This document shows positions 2,229 to 11,862 of a stretch of 16,416 nt of DNA, one piece after another. A program made the position numbers and the translations under genes. Positions within the stretch are counted from its first letter, which is position 1. Every line of letters begins with the position of its first letter. Under the pieces are notes generated by a model. The model ran no database searches, was not told the origin of the DNA, and saw only the letters and a program-made list of their open reading frames with translations. The stretch is from Candidatus Hodarchaeum mangrovi (lineage in GTDB: Archaea > Asgardarchaeota > Heimdallarchaeia > Hodarchaeales > Hodarchaeaceae): positions 1 to 16,416 of the forward strand of contig JAEOUE010000247.1 of NCBI GenBank assembly GCA_016839515.1. Direction: 5' to 3'.

Positions 2229-3752
2229 GTGAATCGAAATTTAAAATCAAATATAAAGGAGTTTGGAGATTATCAAACTCCTGATGAATTAGCGAGTGAA
2301 ATAATTACCCTCATTCAAAAGGAAAATTTCCAGCCAGCGACCATTATAGAACCTACTTGCGGTTTAGGGGCTTTTATTTTAGCTTCAGGAGAACTTTTTC
2401 CTAATTCGCAGATTGTAGGAATTGATATTAATAAAACGTATGTAGAATATATAAATGACCAATTAAGAAGAAAAAAAAGCCCAAATAACATCGAAATACA
2501 AACAAGGGATTTTTTTACCATAAACTGGAAATCTTTGATATCAAATTACTCTGAACCTTATCTAATTGTTGGAAATCCTCCATGGATAACTACAGCTGAT
2601 CTTTCTGTCATTAATAGTAGAAATATTCCTAAAAAATTCAATATTCACAATTATCCAGGACTTGAGGCAAAGATGGGACGAAGTAACTTTGATATTTCAG
2701 AGTGGATGATGTTAGAACTTCTTAATAGTGTCAAAGATACTTCAACGACATTTGTACAAATATGTAAACTTAGTGTAGCGCGTAAGGTGTTTAAATATTG
2801 TGTTGATCATCAAATAAATATTGAAAAAGCTTATATATTTCTTATTGATGCCTTTTTTCATTTTAAAGCTAGTGTAGAAGCTTGTGTTCTGTTTCTTCAA
2901 TTAACTCCTGGAAAATTCACCTCTATATGTGAAATATTTGAAAAATTAAATAAAAATAAGTTACTTCATGAAATAGGAGTCATTGATGGAAAATTAATAG
3001 CAAATATAGAATATTATAGAAAATGGAATCATTTAAATGGAGAATCTCCTTTTGAATGGCGATCAGGAATTAAACACGATTCTGTAAAAGTTATGGAGTT
3101 TATAAAAGGAGAAAAACATTATATTAATGGATTGAAAGAAGAAATCGAAATAGAAAATGATTATTTATACCCGATGCTTAAAAGCTCTGATCTAGCAAAT
3201 AATAAGACCAACCCAAATCGTTGGATGTTGTTAACACAGAAACATACAGGCCAAGATACCTCAATACTTAGAAAAACTGCACCAAAAACATGGAAATATT
3301 TAATGGAAAAAGCATCTTATCTTGACAGAAGAAAAAGTGCTATTTATTTGAAACGCCCAAGATTTTCTATATTTGGTATTGGAGATTATACCTTGGAACC
3401 TTGGAAAATTGCTATTTCAGGTTTTTATAAAAATTTAAAATTTCTCTTTATAGGTCCAAAAGAAGGAAAACCAGTTGTTCTTGATGATACCTGTTATTTC
3501 CTTTCTTTTGATAATTATTGGAAAGCCATGTTAGTTCATACACTTCTAAATCATCCAATAACTGATGAATATTATCGTTCTTACATTTTTTGGGATATGA
3601 AACGTCCAATATCAAAACAAATCCTAATGAACTTAGATTTAAAAAAACTATTAGAGGAAATTGGTTATCAACATTTAATAGAAGCTTTAATGAAAAAAAA
3701 TCCATATTTAAAGCAAGAAAAGATACCTATAATTTTAAAAAATTTGTTTTAG
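2229..3752 (+). CDS. N6-adenine DNA methyltransferase, gamma class, M.NspV-like
   Basis: Motif X FGDYQTP, motif I EPTCGLG and motif IV NPPW in gamma order. Blocks GRSNFDISEWM, WRSGIKHD, RFSIFGIGDYT..PWKIAISGFYK and FWDxKRPI are recalled from M.NspV-type enzymes (from memory, not searched). Confidence 0.9.
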   Translation: MNRNLKSNIKEFGDYQTPDELASEIITLIQKENFQPATIIEPTCGLGAFILASGELFPNSQIVGIDINKTYVEYINDQLRRKKSPNNIEIQTRDFFTINWKSLISNYSEPYLIVGNPPWITTADLSVINSRNIPKKFNIHNYPGLEAKMGRSNFDISEWMMLELLNSVKDTSTTFVQICKLSVARKVFKYCVDHQINIEKAYIFLIDAFFHFKASVEACVLFLQLTPGKFTSICEIFEKLNKNKLLHEIGVIDGKLIANIEYYRKWNHLNGESPFEWRSGIKHDSVKVMEFIKGEKHYINGLKEEIEIENDYLYPMLKSSDLANNKTNPNRWMLLTQKHTGQDTSILRKTAPKTWKYLMEKASYLDRRKSAIYLKRPRFSIFGIGDYTLEPWKIAISGFYKNLKFLFIGPKEGKPVVLDDTCYFLSFDNYWKAMLVHTLLNHPITDEYYRSYIFWDMKRPISKQILMNLDLKKLLEEIGYQHLIEALMKKNPYLKQEKIPIILKNLF

Positions 3753-5072: not shown

Positions 5073-5657
5073 TTGACTATGCATACGAATAAACTACCAC
5101 GTTGTGAGTGGGCAGGGGATGATCCACAAATGATTGCATATCATGATCTTGAATGGGGTGTTCCTGTTCATAATGACCGTGAATTATTTGAATTACTTGT
5201 ACTTGAAGGCGCGCAGGCAGGATTGAGTTGGACGACCATTCTTAAACGACGTGATGGATATAGAACAGCATTTGAAAACTTTGACCCTAAAATAATCTCA
5301 AAATATAATGATACCGATATTGAACGCCTTTTGGAAGATAAATCAATTATTCGTAATAAATTAAAAATTAAGAGCACTATAAATAATGCAAAAAGATTTA
5401 TAGAAATTCAATCTGAATTTGACTCATTTGACCAATATTTATGGGATTTTATTAATCACAAACCAATCCAGAATAAATTTAAAGCCCTTTCAGAGCTACC
5501 TTCTTTCACACCACTTTCTAAAGATATAAGTAATGATTTAAAAAAACGAGGGTTTACTTTTATTGGTCCTACAATTTGTTATGCATTTATGCAGTCAATC
5601 GGAATGGTAAATGACCACTTAATACACTGTTTCCGTTATCATGAATTAAATATCTAA
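5073..5657 (+). CDS. tag: DNA-3-methyladenine glycosylase I
   Basis: RCxW, YHDxEWGVP, LEGAQAGLSW, IIRNKLKI and GMVNDHLxxC zinc ligands. The start may be ATG 5079 rather than TTG 5073. Confidence 0.97.
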   Translation: MTMHTNKLPRCEWAGDDPQMIAYHDLEWGVPVHNDRELFELLVLEGAQAGLSWTTILKRRDGYRTAFENFDPKIISKYNDTDIERLLEDKSIIRNKLKIKSTINNAKRFIEIQSEFDSFDQYLWDFINHKPIQNKFKALSELPSFTPLSKDISNDLKKRGFTFIGPTICYAFMQSIGMVNDHLIHCFRYHELNI

Positions 5658-5924: not shown

Positions 5925-5940
5925 CAAATGCTTAAATATT
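5925..5940 (+). promoter_or_regulatory. Possible archaeal TATA box for the small-peptide unit
   Basis: TTAAATA at 5932-5938, about 25 nt upstream of a GC-richer segment starting near 5961. Weak, because the background is AT-rich. Confidence 0.25.
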
Positions 5941-6019
5941 CTCATAGAAAACAATTTTCCAGCGGCCTCTAAAAGAAATTGCGGTCGTAATGAATCTGAT
6001 TTGAAATAAGGTGAACTAA

Positions 6020-6088
6020 TTGTCTAAAAAGAAAAGTAGTACAAAGAAAAAAACAGAAAAATCTTCAGCAGCTAAGAAAAAGAAATAA
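6020..6088 (+). CDS. 22-aa Lys-rich micro-protein MSKKKSSTKKKTEKSSAAKKKK
   Basis: AAGGTGA RBS at 6008-6014, 5 nt before TTG. 11 of 22 residues are Lys, with mixed AAA/AAG codons. TAA stop at 6086-6088. Absent from the ORF track. Confidence 0.65.
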   Translation: MSKKKSSTKKKTEKSSAAKKKK

Positions 6089-6149: not shown

Positions 6150-6196
6150 CAAATAATGTTTTTCAAATTTATTACCTAGGAGGTAAATAACAAAAA

Positions 6197-6310
6197 ATGG
6201 GATCTAAAGATAAAAAGAAAGACCTTGATGAGGAAGAAGAAGATTTAGATGAAGATTGGGACGACGAAGAAGATTGGGACGACGAAGACGACGACTGGGA
6301 AGATGAATAG
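6197..6310 (+). CDS. 37-aa hyper-acidic Trp-repeat micro-protein MGSKDKKKDLDEEEEDLDEDWDDEEDWDDEDDDWEDE
   Basis: GGAGGT RBS at 6179-6184, ATG at 6197, tandem TAG TAG stops and a downstream T8 tract. 25 of 37 residues are Asp/Glu, with in-frame GAN periodicity. Absent from the ORF track. Confidence 0.8.
   Translation: MGSKDKKKDLDEEEEDLDEDWDDEEDWDDEDDDWEDE
6251..6286 (+). repeat. Perfect 18-bp tandem repeat GAAGATTGGGACGACGAA x2 (EDWDDE), followed by a degenerate third copy
   Basis: Read directly at 6251-6268 and 6269-6286. Confidence 0.9.
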
Positions 6311-6335
6311 TAGTCTTTAATAATCTCAAGATCAC

Positions 6336-6368
6336 TCCCTCTTTTTTTTCCTTAAATTTTCCATTTTC
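6336..6368 (+). terminator. Oligo-T/pyrimidine-rich archaeal-type terminator
   Basis: TCCCTCTTTTTTTTCC (T8 at 6342-6349), about 30 nt after the acidic peptide stop and before the convergent gene. Confidence 0.55.
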
Positions 6369-6370
6369 AA

Positions 6371-7456
6371 TTAAGATTTATTAATTAGTGGAGAGGGAAC
6401 TTGATTGGTATGGAATGGTTTCCAAGTAAAAACTAATAGAATATCAATTATTATAACCATTTGAGAGATAGTACATAATAAACAGATGAATTCTAAGAGA
6501 AATAATTCAATATAAAGAAGATAAAATAAAGATAAAAATCCAACAAATAACAATAAGGTAAGTAACTTATACAATAGCTGTAAATTTTTTTCTGTTATAA
6601 CTATAAATTTCCTAGTTTCAATATTAATGGAGAATGGAGTGGGAATAATACTTATGAAATTAATTATTATGAAAATAGAACTCATAAGCCCTATACCCAT
6701 TAAAGAAAATGGTATCTCTATATTAAAAAGCATTAGATGATCATATCTACGAAATAACAATACCTGAGCCAAATTACCTCCAGCACAGCCACATCCACCA
6801 CGAATATAATCAAGGAGTTGATAAGTAAGGGTTATCAATGAGATTAAGGTCAATCCAATAAGAATCAAAAAACGTTTTTTTGAGATCCTTTTGAGTACCT
6901 TTTGATTACGATTTGGGGAAAAATACCATAAGCAGGGAATATTTAAGAAAATTAAACCTCCAAGGATTAATAATGAAGAAATTCCAAGCAATGGTAGATC
7001 AAGAGACTCAATTGAAATTTTTGGGATGAATGGTTGTGATGTTTTAGGAACAGTATATCCTGAATCTGTTAGAATTGCTAGAAAGGTGGTTTCAATCGAT
7101 TCAAGGTTTCTTTCATCTATAATTATCAGCTGATTATCTCCCCAATGGAATATAACCCATGGGAAACCTTGTAATGTGGAAGTATTAATGTCAAGAGAAT
7201 CAATTATATCCCAATATGATGCTAGTCCGATTTCAGTGTAGGTATCTATTAGAAGAAAATCTATGGTCTCATTATCTCTATAAGAATTGTAAAAAGGTTT
7301 AACATATGTGCTATATTTTGACATACAAGCAGAACATTCAGAATAATAAATTATGTAACATTCTATTAGGACTGGTTGGGCTGAATGAGAAGGAACGGGA
7401 GTGATTAATAATAAGAATATACTTAATACGATAATTAGATTTTTCTGTCTTAGCAT
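6371..7456 (-). CDS. Thioredoxin-like domain fused to a VKOR-family membrane domain
   Basis: N-terminal signal-like segment, CSAC motif and GFP cis-Pro loop. The C-terminal multi-TM region has loop CGC, IPFSLMGIG and YLLYIELFLLEFICLLC, matching the VKOR CxxC helix. Confidence 0.75.
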   Translation of the reverse strand: MLRQKNLIIVLSIFLLLITPVPSHSAQPVLIECYIIYYSECSACMSKYSTYVKPFYNSYRDNETIDFLLIDTYTEIGLASYWDIIDSLDINTSTLQGFPWVIFHWGDNQLIIIDERNLESIETTFLAILTDSGYTVPKTSQPFIPKISIESLDLPLLGISSLLILGGLIFLNIPCLWYFSPNRNQKVLKRISKKRFLILIGLTLISLITLTYQLLDYIRGGCGCAGGNLAQVLLFRRYDHLMLFNIEIPFSLMGIGLMSSIFIIINFISIIPTPFSINIETRKFIVITEKNLQLLYKLLTLLLFVGFLSLFYLLYIELFLLEFICLLCTISQMVIIIDILLVFTWKPFHTNQVPSPLINKS

Positions 7457-9088: not shown

Positions 9089-9364
9089 ATGCGTTTAACT
9101 CAGCAATTTGGAATGAAAAAATCATTAGATCACTTATTTCAGCTCCTATATATGTCAACTAATCTTTTTTCTAATTTTGAATCACAAGAGGGATTGCATG
9201 TTCTTCATCTCAAGTTTAATAATTCACAGAATTATACAGAAGCCGAAGTTAGACAGCTTCTGTCTTATTTTCTGGACTTAGTAGAATACTTTACACATGA
9301 AAGAATTCTTCTAATTCAGGACCCAACTGATAAAACAAGATTTGCTTTAAGTGGAGGATTTTAA
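9089..9364 (+). CDS. Hypothetical protein, possibly the 3' part of a longer decayed gene
   Basis: 91-aa ORF abutting the next gene, with no recognisable motif. The frame extends back to ATG 8936 through two stops. Confidence 0.5.
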   Translation: MRLTQQFGMKKSLDHLFQLLYMSTNLFSNFESQEGLHVLHLKFNNSQNYTEAEVRQLLSYFLDLVEYFTHERILLIQDPTDKTRFALSGGF

Positions 9365-9365
9365 T

Positions 9366-9815
9366 GTGTATTCAGAAAAATCCTATATAGATAAAGCCAA
9401 TTCTGCTGAAAGAAAGCTTATAGCTTGGAAAGAATCAGAAAACATTACAGTAGCTCAGCAGGAAATTAAAAAGATACCTATGAGAACTTCAAGAGATGAA
9501 GAAGTAGCAAATAGAGCTTTATTGCTTCTTTCATTTAAAGATACTTCGATTCAAAATTTAAAGCATGTTTTCAATGTATTAGGCATAAAAACGGTTGAAG
9601 AAAAAAGAAAAATTTTGAAAGTGATATTTCATTTCATACGAGAAGGTTTAATTTATATCCCAAAGGGTTTACCAAATCTAATAGACAAGGGAGTCCTGAT
9701 AGATTTAAATAATCCTGCAGAAGAGAGTATTGAGATACATCTACTAAGACCTTTTGACGAATTGATAAAGGAAATCCAAGAGGAAATTACCAGTTTATAT
9801 GTTGGTGAGAAATAA
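9366..9815 (+). CDS. Hypothetical protein, possible winged-helix fold
   Basis: GGAGG at 9353-9357 lies 8 nt before the in-frame GTG 9366 (the track start is 9351). LLLLS...SIQNL...ILKVIFHFIREGLIYI resembles a wHTH pattern. Confidence 0.65.
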   Translation: MYSEKSYIDKANSAERKLIAWKESENITVAQQEIKKIPMRTSRDEEVANRALLLLSFKDTSIQNLKHVFNVLGIKTVEEKRKILKVIFHFIREGLIYIPKGLPNLIDKGVLIDLNNPAEESIEIHLLRPFDELIKEIQEEITSLYVGEK

Positions 9816-9827
9816 ATTAATTGAAGA

Positions 9828-10307
9828 TTGTCTGAAATCTATCAATTTGGTGGATGTCGAATGATAATGTATAATGGTTCAATTAAAAAGGTAAATTCTG
9901 AAAAACAAATAGATGAACTTGAACTAGTAAAAATAAAATCTTATTTAAATGAAGCTTTTCCAATTTCTGAGTATAATTTGACAATAATATGGCATGAACT
10001 GAAACAAATGAGAGCTGAACTTGAAATCTCACAAAAAATTCCTATTTCTGACCTTATTGACTATTATTTTAAACTCATTACGGTTAAACAAGCATTTAAT
10101 AACCAAATAAGTAATTTTGTACAGCTTAATCAATTATATATTGAATTAATTACAATTCGAGAAATGTTAGATCTTTCAGAATCTGTAAGAATTTCAGAGA
10201 TAATCGACTTTATTCAGAATGAGGACCTTACCAAACTAGGGATAGGGAAAAATTCTTTGTTAGAAAAACTATTGAAACTTACATTCTTGAATCTCTCATG
10301 GTATTGA
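9828..10307 (+). CDS. Hypothetical protein
   Basis: 159-aa ORF starting 12 nt after the previous stop. Helical composition. An alternative start is ATG 9861, after GGTGGA. Confidence 0.65.
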   Translation: MSEIYQFGGCRMIMYNGSIKKVNSEKQIDELELVKIKSYLNEAFPISEYNLTIIWHELKQMRAELEISQKIPISDLIDYYFKLITVKQAFNNQISNFVQLNQLYIELITIREMLDLSESVRISEIIDFIQNEDLTKLGIGKNSLLEKLLKLTFLNLSWY

Positions 10308-10434
10308 ATTTTCCTCATTCTTGAATTGCGTTCATATTAAAAAGTGTTATTTTTTCATTAAGAAATGTTTTTGATAGGTACTAGATCTTTTTACATATGC
10401 TCATTCTAGAAAAACAGAACATGAGGTTTTTGAA

Positions 10435-11862
10435 TTGGTTTTTCCTATAAATATTGAATCTCCGAATGATTGGTTAGAACAGATTCCCTCCTTTTTATCC
10501 TCTCTACAACCAGATTCTATTTATCTCGATTCTTTTGAATTCCAATCATATTTAGCTAATAAATTAAACAATTTCTATTCCCAATACCCCTTAAAATTTA
10601 ATAGTATAATTAAAGAAATTTTAAAAACAAGTACAGAACTAGCAAAATATCTTTTAATCAAGATATTATTATTAACTCCAGATTTATGGAAAAATTTCAA
10701 ACTTGATGATGAATTTCAACCAATATTGACAGAGCTTGCTCTTACTCCAGATAAAATTTATGCGAAAAATGCTGCAACATTATCCAAAAATATTATAGAG
10801 ACTGTGGAAAGTCAAAGATTCAAAGCTGAAAAAGTAAGTGAGGATGCGGGAACATTTGATGAAATTGAAGATAAGGAAATCAGCTTTGGAGAAGAAGAAG
10901 AAGAAGCTTTTGATGACCTTTCACTCTCAAAAATTATTCATGAATCTGAAGCAGAAACTTTTAAGAGAGAAAAAGCTTCTAAATCAGCCCCAGTACTTAA
11001 GGAAGCTCAGCCTCCTAAACCTAGCCCAGCATTTGGTGCTCCTAGTCGAAAAACAAGCCCAACTTCACCACCAGTCCCTTCCATGGAGAGAATGGAATCA
11101 ATATCTAAAAAAGAGAGCATAAAACCTGATACTATTTCATCTAAAATGTCTAAAGGGCAAACAATTCATACTCATGTTCACTATTACTCACGGATGAATC
11201 CACGTAAAACTTATCCATTTACTGTTACTTTATCAACTCTAGCTATAAAATTAAAAAGAGATAAGATTCATATATTGACTGGTGAAGAAGAATCCGAGAC
11301 CAGAGGTGATTTTGAATTATATGATATAAAAAGCGATCTTATAATTGAACCTTTACTCTCTGGATGCCTTGTTCAACCAACTTTTCAATTTTTTAGTCCA
11401 AAACCAGAAAATTTTCCAAGTGAATTAACCTTCTATATCACACCTTTAGTTGAAGCAGGATTTCGATCTACACAATTAGAAGGAGTATTGTACATCAAAG
11501 ACGAGAAAAGTAATATTCTATTAAAGTTAGAATTAGAAGAAACACGAGTAGTTAGTAATCGATTAAGTCAATTAGTAGCAATTTTCGGAGTTCTAAGTGG
11601 TGGAGCAATGCCTTTTCTTGATACTTTTATTTTTGGAGGAGATCTTCAAGCTCAAGTCATAACACAACTCTCAGAGAATGCTCAAAATTTAGCTCCAGCA
11701 ATTACAGGTTCTTTTACAAATGTTGATTGGTGGAATTTACTCACTAGTTTTCAAATCATACTTGTTGGTGGTACCTTACTTGGAGCCTTAATATATTGGT
11801 GGAAACGTTCTAGAGCTAGGATAGGTCCTATTGCGACTTCACAACTACAATTAAATCCTTAG
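10435..11862 (+). CDS. Hypothetical C-terminally membrane-anchored protein with acidic and Pro/Ser-rich linker
   Basis: GAGGT RBS before TTG. Helical N-domain, EEEEE tract, PPKPSP/SPTSPPVP region, beta-rich domain, then two hydrophobic segments ending in WWKRSR. Confidence 0.8.
   Translation: MVFPINIESPNDWLEQIPSFLSSLQPDSIYLDSFEFQSYLANKLNNFYSQYPLKFNSIIKEILKTSTELAKYLLIKILLLTPDLWKNFKLDDEFQPILTELALTPDKIYAKNAATLSKNIIETVESQRFKAEKVSEDAGTFDEIEDKEISFGEEEEEAFDDLSLSKIIHESEAETFKREKASKSAPVLKEAQPPKPSPAFGAPSRKTSPTSPPVPSMERMESISKKESIKPDTISSKMSKGQTIHTHVHYYSRMNPRKTYPFTVTLSTLAIKLKRDKIHILTGEEESETRGDFELYDIKSDLIIEPLLSGCLVQPTFQFFSPKPENFPSELTFYITPLVEAGFRSTQLEGVLYIKDEKSNILLKLELEETRVVSNRLSQLVAIFGVLSGGAMPFLDTFIFGGDLQAQVITQLSENAQNLAPAITGSFTNVDWWNLLTSFQIILVGGTLLGALIYWWKRSRARIGPIATSQLQLNP

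Follow-up and report, generated by a model that had tools for sequence, protein, structure and literature searches.

A hyper-acidic, tryptophan-bearing micro-gene of Candidatus Hodarchaeum mangrovi and its relatives among the Asgard archaea

The acidic-Trp gene and its locus

The DNA described here (the window) is an entire 16.4-kb contig (16,416 nucleotides; JAEOUE010000247.1) of the genome bin of Candidatus Hodarchaeum mangrovi, which is designated G000 below (4.0 Mb, 33% G+C, 91% complete). Our subject is a tiny acidic open reading frame (ORF) on its forward strand, at 6197-6310, which together with a Lys-rich micro-ORF at 6020-6088 makes up a two-gene cassette (Table 1). The acidic ORF extends from an ATG at 6197-6199 to a TAG at 6308-6310 and is translated as MGSKDKKKDLDEEEEDLDEDWDDEEDWDDEDDDWEDE, followed by the stop. 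Its start is unambiguous because an in-frame stop codon sits two codons 5′ of the ATG. The peptide possesses a short Lys head, and its Trp region is preceded by two DLDE units; the net charge is about −21. The original prediction, made from the letters of this DNA, had described three Trp residues in acidic context and two DLDE units, and the translation confirms both at exactly the coordinates given.

The triple Trp-acidic motif is real and is no chance product of composition. A six-frame count of G000 gave six frames with at least one [DE]2-W-[DE]2 motif, one with at least two and one with at least three. The corresponding numbers were 0, 0, and 0 for the reversed genome and 1-2, 0, and 0 for three block shuffles. 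Among the 23,111 ORFs of at least 30 residues in G000, that at 6197-6310 is the sole one of no more than 80 residues in which Asp and Glu account for at least 45% of the residues. Rfam and tRNA scans of the window returned no match.

The TATA-like box upstream of the Lys-rich ORF presumably serves as the promoter of the gene pair, and the hairpin and T8 region beyond the acidic stop codon is probably the transcript end. Neither the 3′ hairpin of the window (z = −0.26, not significant) nor its 5′ leader (z = 0.42) folds better than shuffled sequences.

Table 1. Features of the acidic-Trp locus and of the remainder of the window
Feature	Position	Strand	Remarks
Type II DNA methyltransferase	2229-3752	+	PADLOC MTase_II, 497 bits; 2.4 kb upstream of the pair
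TATA-like box TTAAATAT	5932..5939	+	Read in the sequence; ~85 nt 5′ of the Lys-rich ORF
Shine-Dalgarno-like GGTGA	6010..6014	+	5 nt 5′ of the TTG start of the Lys-rich ORF
Lys-rich micro-ORF	6020..6088	+	TTG start, 22 codons and stop; Lys at 11 of 22 residues
Shine-Dalgarno-like AGGAGGT	6179..6185	+	Read in the sequence; 11 nt 5′ of the ATG of the acidic ORF
Acidic-Trp microprotein gene	6197..6310	+	37 codons and TAG; 25 Asp/Glu, 4 Lys, 3 Trp
Three Trp codons	6257-6259, 6275-6277, 6296-6298 (span 6257..6298)	+	Asp/Glu codons on either side
Weak long-looped hairpin containing the T8 run	6330..6406	+	Overlaps the 3′ end of the convergent gene 6371-7456 (−)
T8 run	6342-6349	+	3′ of the acidic stop codon; read in the sequence
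Membrane protein	6371-7456	−	361 residues, several paired-Cys motifs; without hits in Pfam or PADLOC
Four consecutive ORFs (91, 154, 159, and 475 residues)	within 9089-11862	+	No Pfam hit; two M16 peptidase genes and an alpha-amylase gene come next

Coding evidence and distribution of the family

Comparison with relatives indicates that 6197-6310 is very probably a real protein-coding gene and a member of an Asgard microprotein family. Searching the proteins of 40 relatives revealed three comparable tiny ORFs, all from two genomes of the genus, and profile searches of the class (83 genomes) and phylum (400 genomes) brought up ten copies, here called type 1, in six genomes (one each in G000 and G007; two each in G001, G011, G016, and G019). 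These copies are 36-47 residues long, differ in length by whole codons, and carry 2-4 Trp each, which agrees with the original description of the peptide as multivalent. An AGGTGA-like site precedes every one of them bar the divergent copy on contig C400 of G019. That prediction had made conservation of the Trp residues a check on itself: W21 and W27 are invariant in all ten close homologues, as are the Glu run and several Lys residues (alignment A4), and both Trp are at least 90% conserved across 28 diverse members (alignment A9).

The substitution pattern points the same way. Differences at codon positions 1:2:3 among 13 copies of the acidic ORF number 374:265:1221, and pN/pS lies between 0.07 and 0.52 in 78/78 pairs, which are kin and hence not independent. 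It is from this conservation that we infer translation of the ORF. The window stretch is present in 20 metagenome runs from nine studies. On contigs spanning the locus (four runs, four studies) the sole variant inside the ORF is G6232A, which by frame is synonymous, at the third codon position (GAG to GAA); the other variants are found at 6311, 6331, 6362, and 6372, and a further one, A6268C, is seen solely where contigs from other organisms match the acidic repeat. Such variants are too few to be a test alone. Two RNA sequencing runs contain next to none of the window's words.

The sole constant neighbour of the acidic gene in the genus is a Lys-rich micro-ORF, and that of the window (108 nt upstream) is probably a gene as well. 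No other Lys-rich micro-ORF of this type in G000 is preceded by a GGTG or GGAGG site; the other four ORFs flagged in this genome are 13-15 residues long and Leu-rich. Lys-rich counterparts of 20-21 codons, each preceded by its own AGGTGA, are present in every type-1 cassette 10-60 nt 5′ of the acidic ORF, and the type-1 cassettes of the relatives carry TTTAAATA-like boxes at a distance similar to that of the TATA-like box in the window. A second arrangement, type 2, is represented by five copies in the genus (G003, G007 contig 6, G012, G014, and G021), with a Lys-rich ORF, which in four of the five is found approximately 110 nt downstream instead. The type-2 copy of G014 is the nearest to the acidic peptide of the window (77% identity over aligned columns). 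In total the genus holds 15 related cassettes, distributed over ten genomes; a Lys-rich ORF flanks 14 of these, upstream or downstream, and the fifteenth is cut by the contig start. One locus of family f12 also has a Lys-rich ORF.

The type-1 cassettes share further elements at the nucleic acid level. Six of them (L003, L005, L007, L008, L009, and L010) display a conserved 5′ palindrome or hairpin right after the TATA-like box, the stem of which varies in both arms from one genome to another (ttgacc/ggtcaa, tggcc/ggcca, ttggct/agccaa). Their 3′ hairpin is strong (z = −2.5 to −4.0) and contains AGGTGA and its complement, and repeated CGCAC motifs are located farther upstream.

These hairpins bring up the question of whether the peptide itself matters. 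The ORF might act as a translation-level sensor or another peptide-independent element, in which the Asp/Glu run or the Trp codons would stall or drop ribosomes and the transcript, or the act of translation, would be what counts. The very short ORF with its few codon types and the conserved 5′ and 3′ hairpins of the type-1 cassettes are consistent with this idea. It is countered by the strong constraint at the amino acid level, by the lack of a same-strand gene before the terminator-like hairpin or T-run in the window and the type-1 cassettes, and by Trp residues that vary in number and spacing while the residue class is kept. We regard this explanation as very improbable.

Outside the genus, relatives were sought with the DNA pattern TGGGANGANGA-N(1-10)-GAYTGGGANGANGA, which encodes two Trp in acidic context and matches within the window ORF at 6257-6285 and 6275-6306. 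This strict pattern is found in 107 of 400 genomes of the Asgard phylum, belonging to many families; the reversed-pattern control matched 0/400. Statements at the level of loci refer to the 30 that were read. In 28 of these the pattern lies inside a stand-alone ORF of 29-84 codons (counted from the first in-frame start; one ORF is cut), while the remaining two are PCNA genes. The small ORFs have a common build: a short basic head, an acidic run, and then Trp (sometimes Tyr or Phe) every 4-7 acidic residues as far as a variable C-terminus. The head bears Gly-Pro followed by Lys or Arg (GP[KR]) in 16 of the 28; the window copy has GS. By these characteristics the window gene is a divergent member of a widespread, almost unannotated Asgard microprotein family. 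The stand-alone nature of the peptide, as originally proposed, is borne out by the 28 small ORFs, and the opposing case that had been raised, namely that the ORF is the broken tail of a longer gene, did not hold. A search for longer forms of the microprotein also found none, which is weak evidence.

The protein databases contain next to nothing of this family. An hmmsearch of 1.84 billion representatives with alignment A4 gave a single match, P0003, and two word-based searches of 5.8 billion clusters with homologue alignments gave one match each (P0003, and the weak P0004; alignment A10). The cluster searches scored the 8000 candidates sharing most words (7999 in the search for longer forms), so that their blanks are weak. 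P0003 derives from a 717-nt metagenome contig in ENA; it has 64 residues and one Trp, and extends approximately 30 residues past the end of its closest relatives. The best score in the ESM Atlas was 0.78 and provided no lead. Pfam gave no hit for the window peptide at E ≤ 10 and no meaningful hit for the family peptides. When all PDB chains were searched with profiles (twice, E ≤ 10), the outcome was one chance match to ISW1 (E = 0.79) and then nothing. No description of the family was found in the literature searched on Asgard microproteins and on small acidic archaeal Trp proteins. On the results of these searches, membership in any known family cannot be claimed.

Gene neighbourhoods

The pair in the window lies between a DNA-3-methyladenine glycosylase gene (5073-5657) and the convergent gene for the 361-residue membrane protein. 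The latter has orthologues in 15 other genomes of the genus; the genus is deep, since these share only 33-47% identity. In G007 and G015, fusion has made the membrane protein part of far longer frames. Its relatives elsewhere in the genus were read at 22 loci, none with a cassette nearby. The gene following the Type II methyltransferase encodes a DUF362 protein, and no restriction enzyme is recognisable among the scanned window ORFs of at least 80 residues. Across the family no single neighbour is universal, and ordinary metabolic genes surround most of the 30 pattern loci.

One subtype of the cassette is found beside a defence gene. In G001, G007, G011, and G019 a type-1 cassette is located no more than approximately 0.6 kb downstream of the gene for a 408-residue SAVED protein, which PADLOC classifies as a Cap4-like SAVED-PD-DExK effector (E = 2e-23 to 2e-28). 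This protein occurs in six of the 22 genus genomes, the other two being G016, where the SAVED gene and the cassette are on separate contigs, and G017, where the contig ends inside the SAVED gene. The SAVED gene (L020:4993-6219, +) is an orphan, and the first 230 residues of its product are without a Pfam hit; no nucleotide cyclase was found among the scanned neighbours.

Such a location would fit a defence-linked mimic of DNA, whereby the acidic peptide would restrain a nuclease or DNA-binding defence protein or block a protein of an invader. The Type II methyltransferase of the window and the small hyper-acidic Trp ORFs seen on viral contigs also fit this explanation. On the other hand, G000 has the cassette and no SAVED homologue was found in it, G011 and G019 each carry a second cassette away from SAVED, and the linkage may reflect shared descent within one subclade. 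Moreover, the neighbours at the 30 loci are mostly metabolic, and PADLOC and PHROGs give no hit for the acidic peptides. We consider a role of this kind unlikely.

A different association is seen in family f20. In G152, G153, G155, and G167 the acidic ORF is located directly upstream of, and in the same direction as, a gene for an approximately 645-residue fusion of a methyltransferase and an ATP-grasp domain; in G188 the two genes are divergent. The fusion protein joins a UbiE-like SAM methyltransferase to an ATP-grasp of the D-Ala-D-Ala-ligase type (L214:3580-5508, −; L215:2686-4656, +; L216:3748-5679, −). A SET-domain gene follows it in G167.

The carriers LysW and ArgW are small and acidic, have a Trp close to the C-terminus, and act together with an ATP-grasp ligase. 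By analogy, the microprotein might be the carrier or substrate of such a ligase, whether LysW/ArgW-like, a Pup-like tag, or the precursor of a ribosomally made, modified peptide (RiPP). The position of the acidic ORFs beside the fusion gene in five f20 genomes is what recommends this idea. Against it stands the lack of a two-domain orthologue in G000 and the 22 genus genomes, which yielded generic methyltransferase hits only. There is also no ATP-grasp gene in the window, and so no ligase adjacent to the cassette of G000. Of the features that LysW-type carriers require, the family has neither the Cys4 zinc ribbon, being devoid of Cys, nor a fixed C-terminal acceptor residue, and no PDB chain matched. 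We judge the proposal to be highly improbable.

In families f8, f9, and f12, four loci have the acidic ORF next to a gene for a very basic protein of 267-286 residues (pI 10.2-10.8; net charge +24 to +36). Co-folding of one of these basic orphan proteins (G109, A7) with the neighbouring microprotein (A8) gave a score of 0.00, which counts neither way.

Related tails, known systems, and a proposed mode of action

The Trp-acidic build also occurs at the ends of larger proteins. In each of the 21 other genus genomes, PCNA terminates in an acidic tail of 30-40 residues with Trp or Tyr, located after a YLLAP motif (loci L220-L240; for example, L220 = G011:C9:115611-119507). Sixteen of these tails have Trp in acidic context and five (G002, G004, G013, G018, and G020) have Tyr only. 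The tail resembles the second half of the microprotein in its order of aromatic residue, acidic run, Trp, acidic run, Trp, and acidic end. A Tyr-acidic DNA pattern was found in one of 22 genomes, where no ORF of at least 20 codons on the matched strand covers the match.

It is conceivable from this resemblance that the microprotein is a free mimic of the PCNA tail, which would compete for the reader of the clamp tail and thereby tune the traffic of replication factors. Tails of this build in 21/21 genomes, and the genes for subunits of replication factor C (RFC) that follow the PCNA gene in G011 and G017, speak for it. The PCNA of G000 itself is missing from the assembly, the low-complexity resemblance could be convergent, and no gene linkage exists between the cassette and replication genes. 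We hold this explanation to be distinctly unlikely.

Viral contigs (IMG/VR) hold more than 119 stretches with the Trp-acidic pattern. Of 80 viral ORFs read, approximately half encode larger proteins that end in an acidic tail bearing the pattern; a few others stand alone as hyper-acidic ORFs (35-100 residues). The recurrent viral groups (L034-L113) include proteins of about 200 residues with Trp-acidic tails and a family of about 168 residues with Trp/Tyr-acidic tails. A 142-residue protein of G000 (C96:4430-4858, −), without a significant Pfam hit, likewise has an acidic tail with one Trp in a microprotein-like context. Since viral and PCNA tails share the pattern, Trp within an acidic run is a device met repeatedly in prokaryotes and viruses; a caveat to this effect, concerning prokaryotic acidic tails with aromatic residues, had accompanied the original prediction and proved sound. 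Its occurrence in phage and PCNA tails therefore points to a general binding of basic surfaces and not to a cytoskeletal code.

A cytoskeletal reading is the one that had first been suggested, in the form of a eukaryote-like Trp-acidic motif that would engage an actin-nucleation or motor-adaptor system. The Trp-acidic context is indeed conserved and repeated, and the host is an Asgard archaeon with an actin homologue, the case that had been singled out as notable (one match in G000, 437 bits). There is also a match to ARPC4, subunit 4 of Arp2/3, in a 155-codon frame of G000 (30.7 bits; C263:4263-4541, +), which none of 14 control genomes possesses. The window peptide resembles the A motif of WASP-family proteins in having an acidic stretch with a conserved Trp near the C-terminus. 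It differs from the complete VCA region in lacking the WH2 (V) and connector (C) motifs, a reservation made from the start: 37 residues, just 20 of which precede the first Trp, leave no room for them, and there is no Pfam hit. The actin-family match is the single one in G000 at E ≤ 1e-5, and hence no Arp2 or Arp3 paralogues were seen with that query; subunits of Arp2/3 besides ARPC4 were not searched for. The proposed link to the WASP A motif is accordingly not upheld.

Kinesin light chains fare no better as partners. They have been described (PMC6214655) as recognising a Trp or Tyr set between acidic residues, with electrostatics contributing strongly, and the flanking Asp/Glu residues are a likeness shared by the window peptide. 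In the same account, the SKIP peptide bears a hydrophobic residue at position −2 to the Trp. The residues at this position of the three Trp in the window are Glu, Glu, and Asp, and no match to the kinesin motor (PF00225) was found at E ≤ 0.01 in G000 (91% complete). For both systems, then, the receptor machinery was seen incompletely or not at all in the host and the flanking determinants are missing from the peptide, and we find a cytoskeletal role barely credible.

DSS1/Sem1 is a small, disordered, acidic protein with a conserved and functionally important Trp. The window peptide is likewise small, acidic, disordered, and Trp-bearing, while being about half as long and without the C-terminal helix segment. 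It might accordingly be a DSS1-like glue that fits into the basic grooves of multi-subunit assemblies, for example pairs of PCI domains or proteins with an OB fold. Apart from the shared general build, G000 has a gene for a chain of 510 or more residues, the C-terminus of which exceeds the Pfam cut-off for PCI (34 bits; contig C251, L153:1447-2979, −); this hit is weak because the PCI model matches 14/14 control prokaryotes, one of them above the cut-off. The rest of that chain is without an NCBIfam hit. The DSS1 model PF05160 has no match in G000 at E ≤ 10, nor in seven family members at E ≤ 10 or 23 at E ≤ 5, no DSS1/Sem1 chain appeared in the two PDB profile searches at E ≤ 10, and no literature linking Asgard archaea and DSS1 was found. 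This makes a DSS1-like function quite improbable.

The reading which we favour, tentatively, is that the microprotein may act as a Trp-anchored polyanionic clamp or decoy for partners rich in Lys and Arg. The peptide must be disordered because its net charge is near −21 and it has no hydrophobic core. Chains of this kind attach to surfaces rich in Lys and Arg, and an aromatic side chain within the acidic stretch commonly provides the anchor. As a disordered polyanion it would bind Lys/Arg-rich surfaces by charge, with the Trp side chains as hydrophobic anchors that would add affinity and specificity. The co-encoded poly-Lys peptide would be the most economical partner in the genus, the two forming a charge-neutral disordered pair. 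The wider targets are likely to be basic proteins that bind nucleic acids, for which the microprotein could be a chaperone, decoy, or competitor. Besides the coding signal and the family itself, the following are counted for the clamp or decoy: a Lys-rich ORF flanks 14 of the 15 cassettes, the sole such Lys-rich ORF of G000 is found 108 nt from its sole hyper-acidic ORF, basic proteins are neighbours in f8, f9, and f12, and Trp-acidic tails are present on PCNA and viral proteins.

Prothymosin-alpha and the linker histone H1 form a disordered polyelectrolyte pair. The cassette would resemble it in joining a disordered protein of extreme acidity to a partner that is disordered and Lys-rich; here, however, both would be micro-peptides encoded side by side, and nothing in the known pair corresponds to the Trp anchors. 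The other parallel is provided by the acidic aromatic tails of phage SSB and helicase and of the genus PCNA, with their Asp/Glu runs and aromatic anchor, which dock, or may dock, on basic patches. Those tails belong to folded proteins, whereas the window peptide is a free 37-residue chain with its own basic head. In its mode of working the peptide would most resemble these two, the acidic aromatic tails of replication proteins and the disordered polyanion-polycation pairs, in the form of a free micro-gene. The clamp was chosen on account of two precedents: the acidic tail of T7 gp4, which docks on basic patches of gp5 in the replisome (PMC12593628), and the Trp ligands of kinesin light chains (PMC6214655).

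Several observations weigh against the clamp or decoy. The coding signal of the Lys-rich ORF is weak (codon-position differences 195:174:242; pN/pS 0.17-1.25); the window copy compared with the others gives pN/pS of 0.5-1.1 and is alike in composition more than in sequence (30-43% identity). None of the 11 family-f20 loci checked has a Lys-rich neighbour, and the acidic/Lys-rich pair is therefore not universal. A homologue of the basic orphan protein was detected neither in the window nor in G000, which is 91% complete, so that this protein cannot explain the window copy. The genes flanking the cassettes differ between copies and therefore supply no functional context for the cassette. Finally, composition alone would fit several other roles, and for every member of the family the clamp binding is something that we infer.

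A bolder extension of the clamp would be an Asgard Trp-acidic code, in which the PCNA tail and the free microproteins are read by one class of basic receptor sites and the microprotein, buffered by the poly-Lys peptide, competes with the clamp tails and with acidic tails of other proteins. We think this improbable, at about the level of the PCNA-tail mimic. If true, it would represent a regulatory layer of short linear motifs in the closest prokaryotic relatives of eukaryotes, and perhaps the sort of system that later gave rise to DSS1-like and W-acidic motifs.

The analysis sets out a genus-wide two-gene cassette in two arrangements, the linkage of one subtype to SAVED, and the matching tails of PCNA. 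The pattern is present in 107 of 400 Asgard genomes, yet gene callers and protein databases almost entirely miss the family. Should the proposed clamping be true, these genes would constitute a widespread and overlooked layer of tiny disordered regulators in the archaea nearest to eukaryotes.

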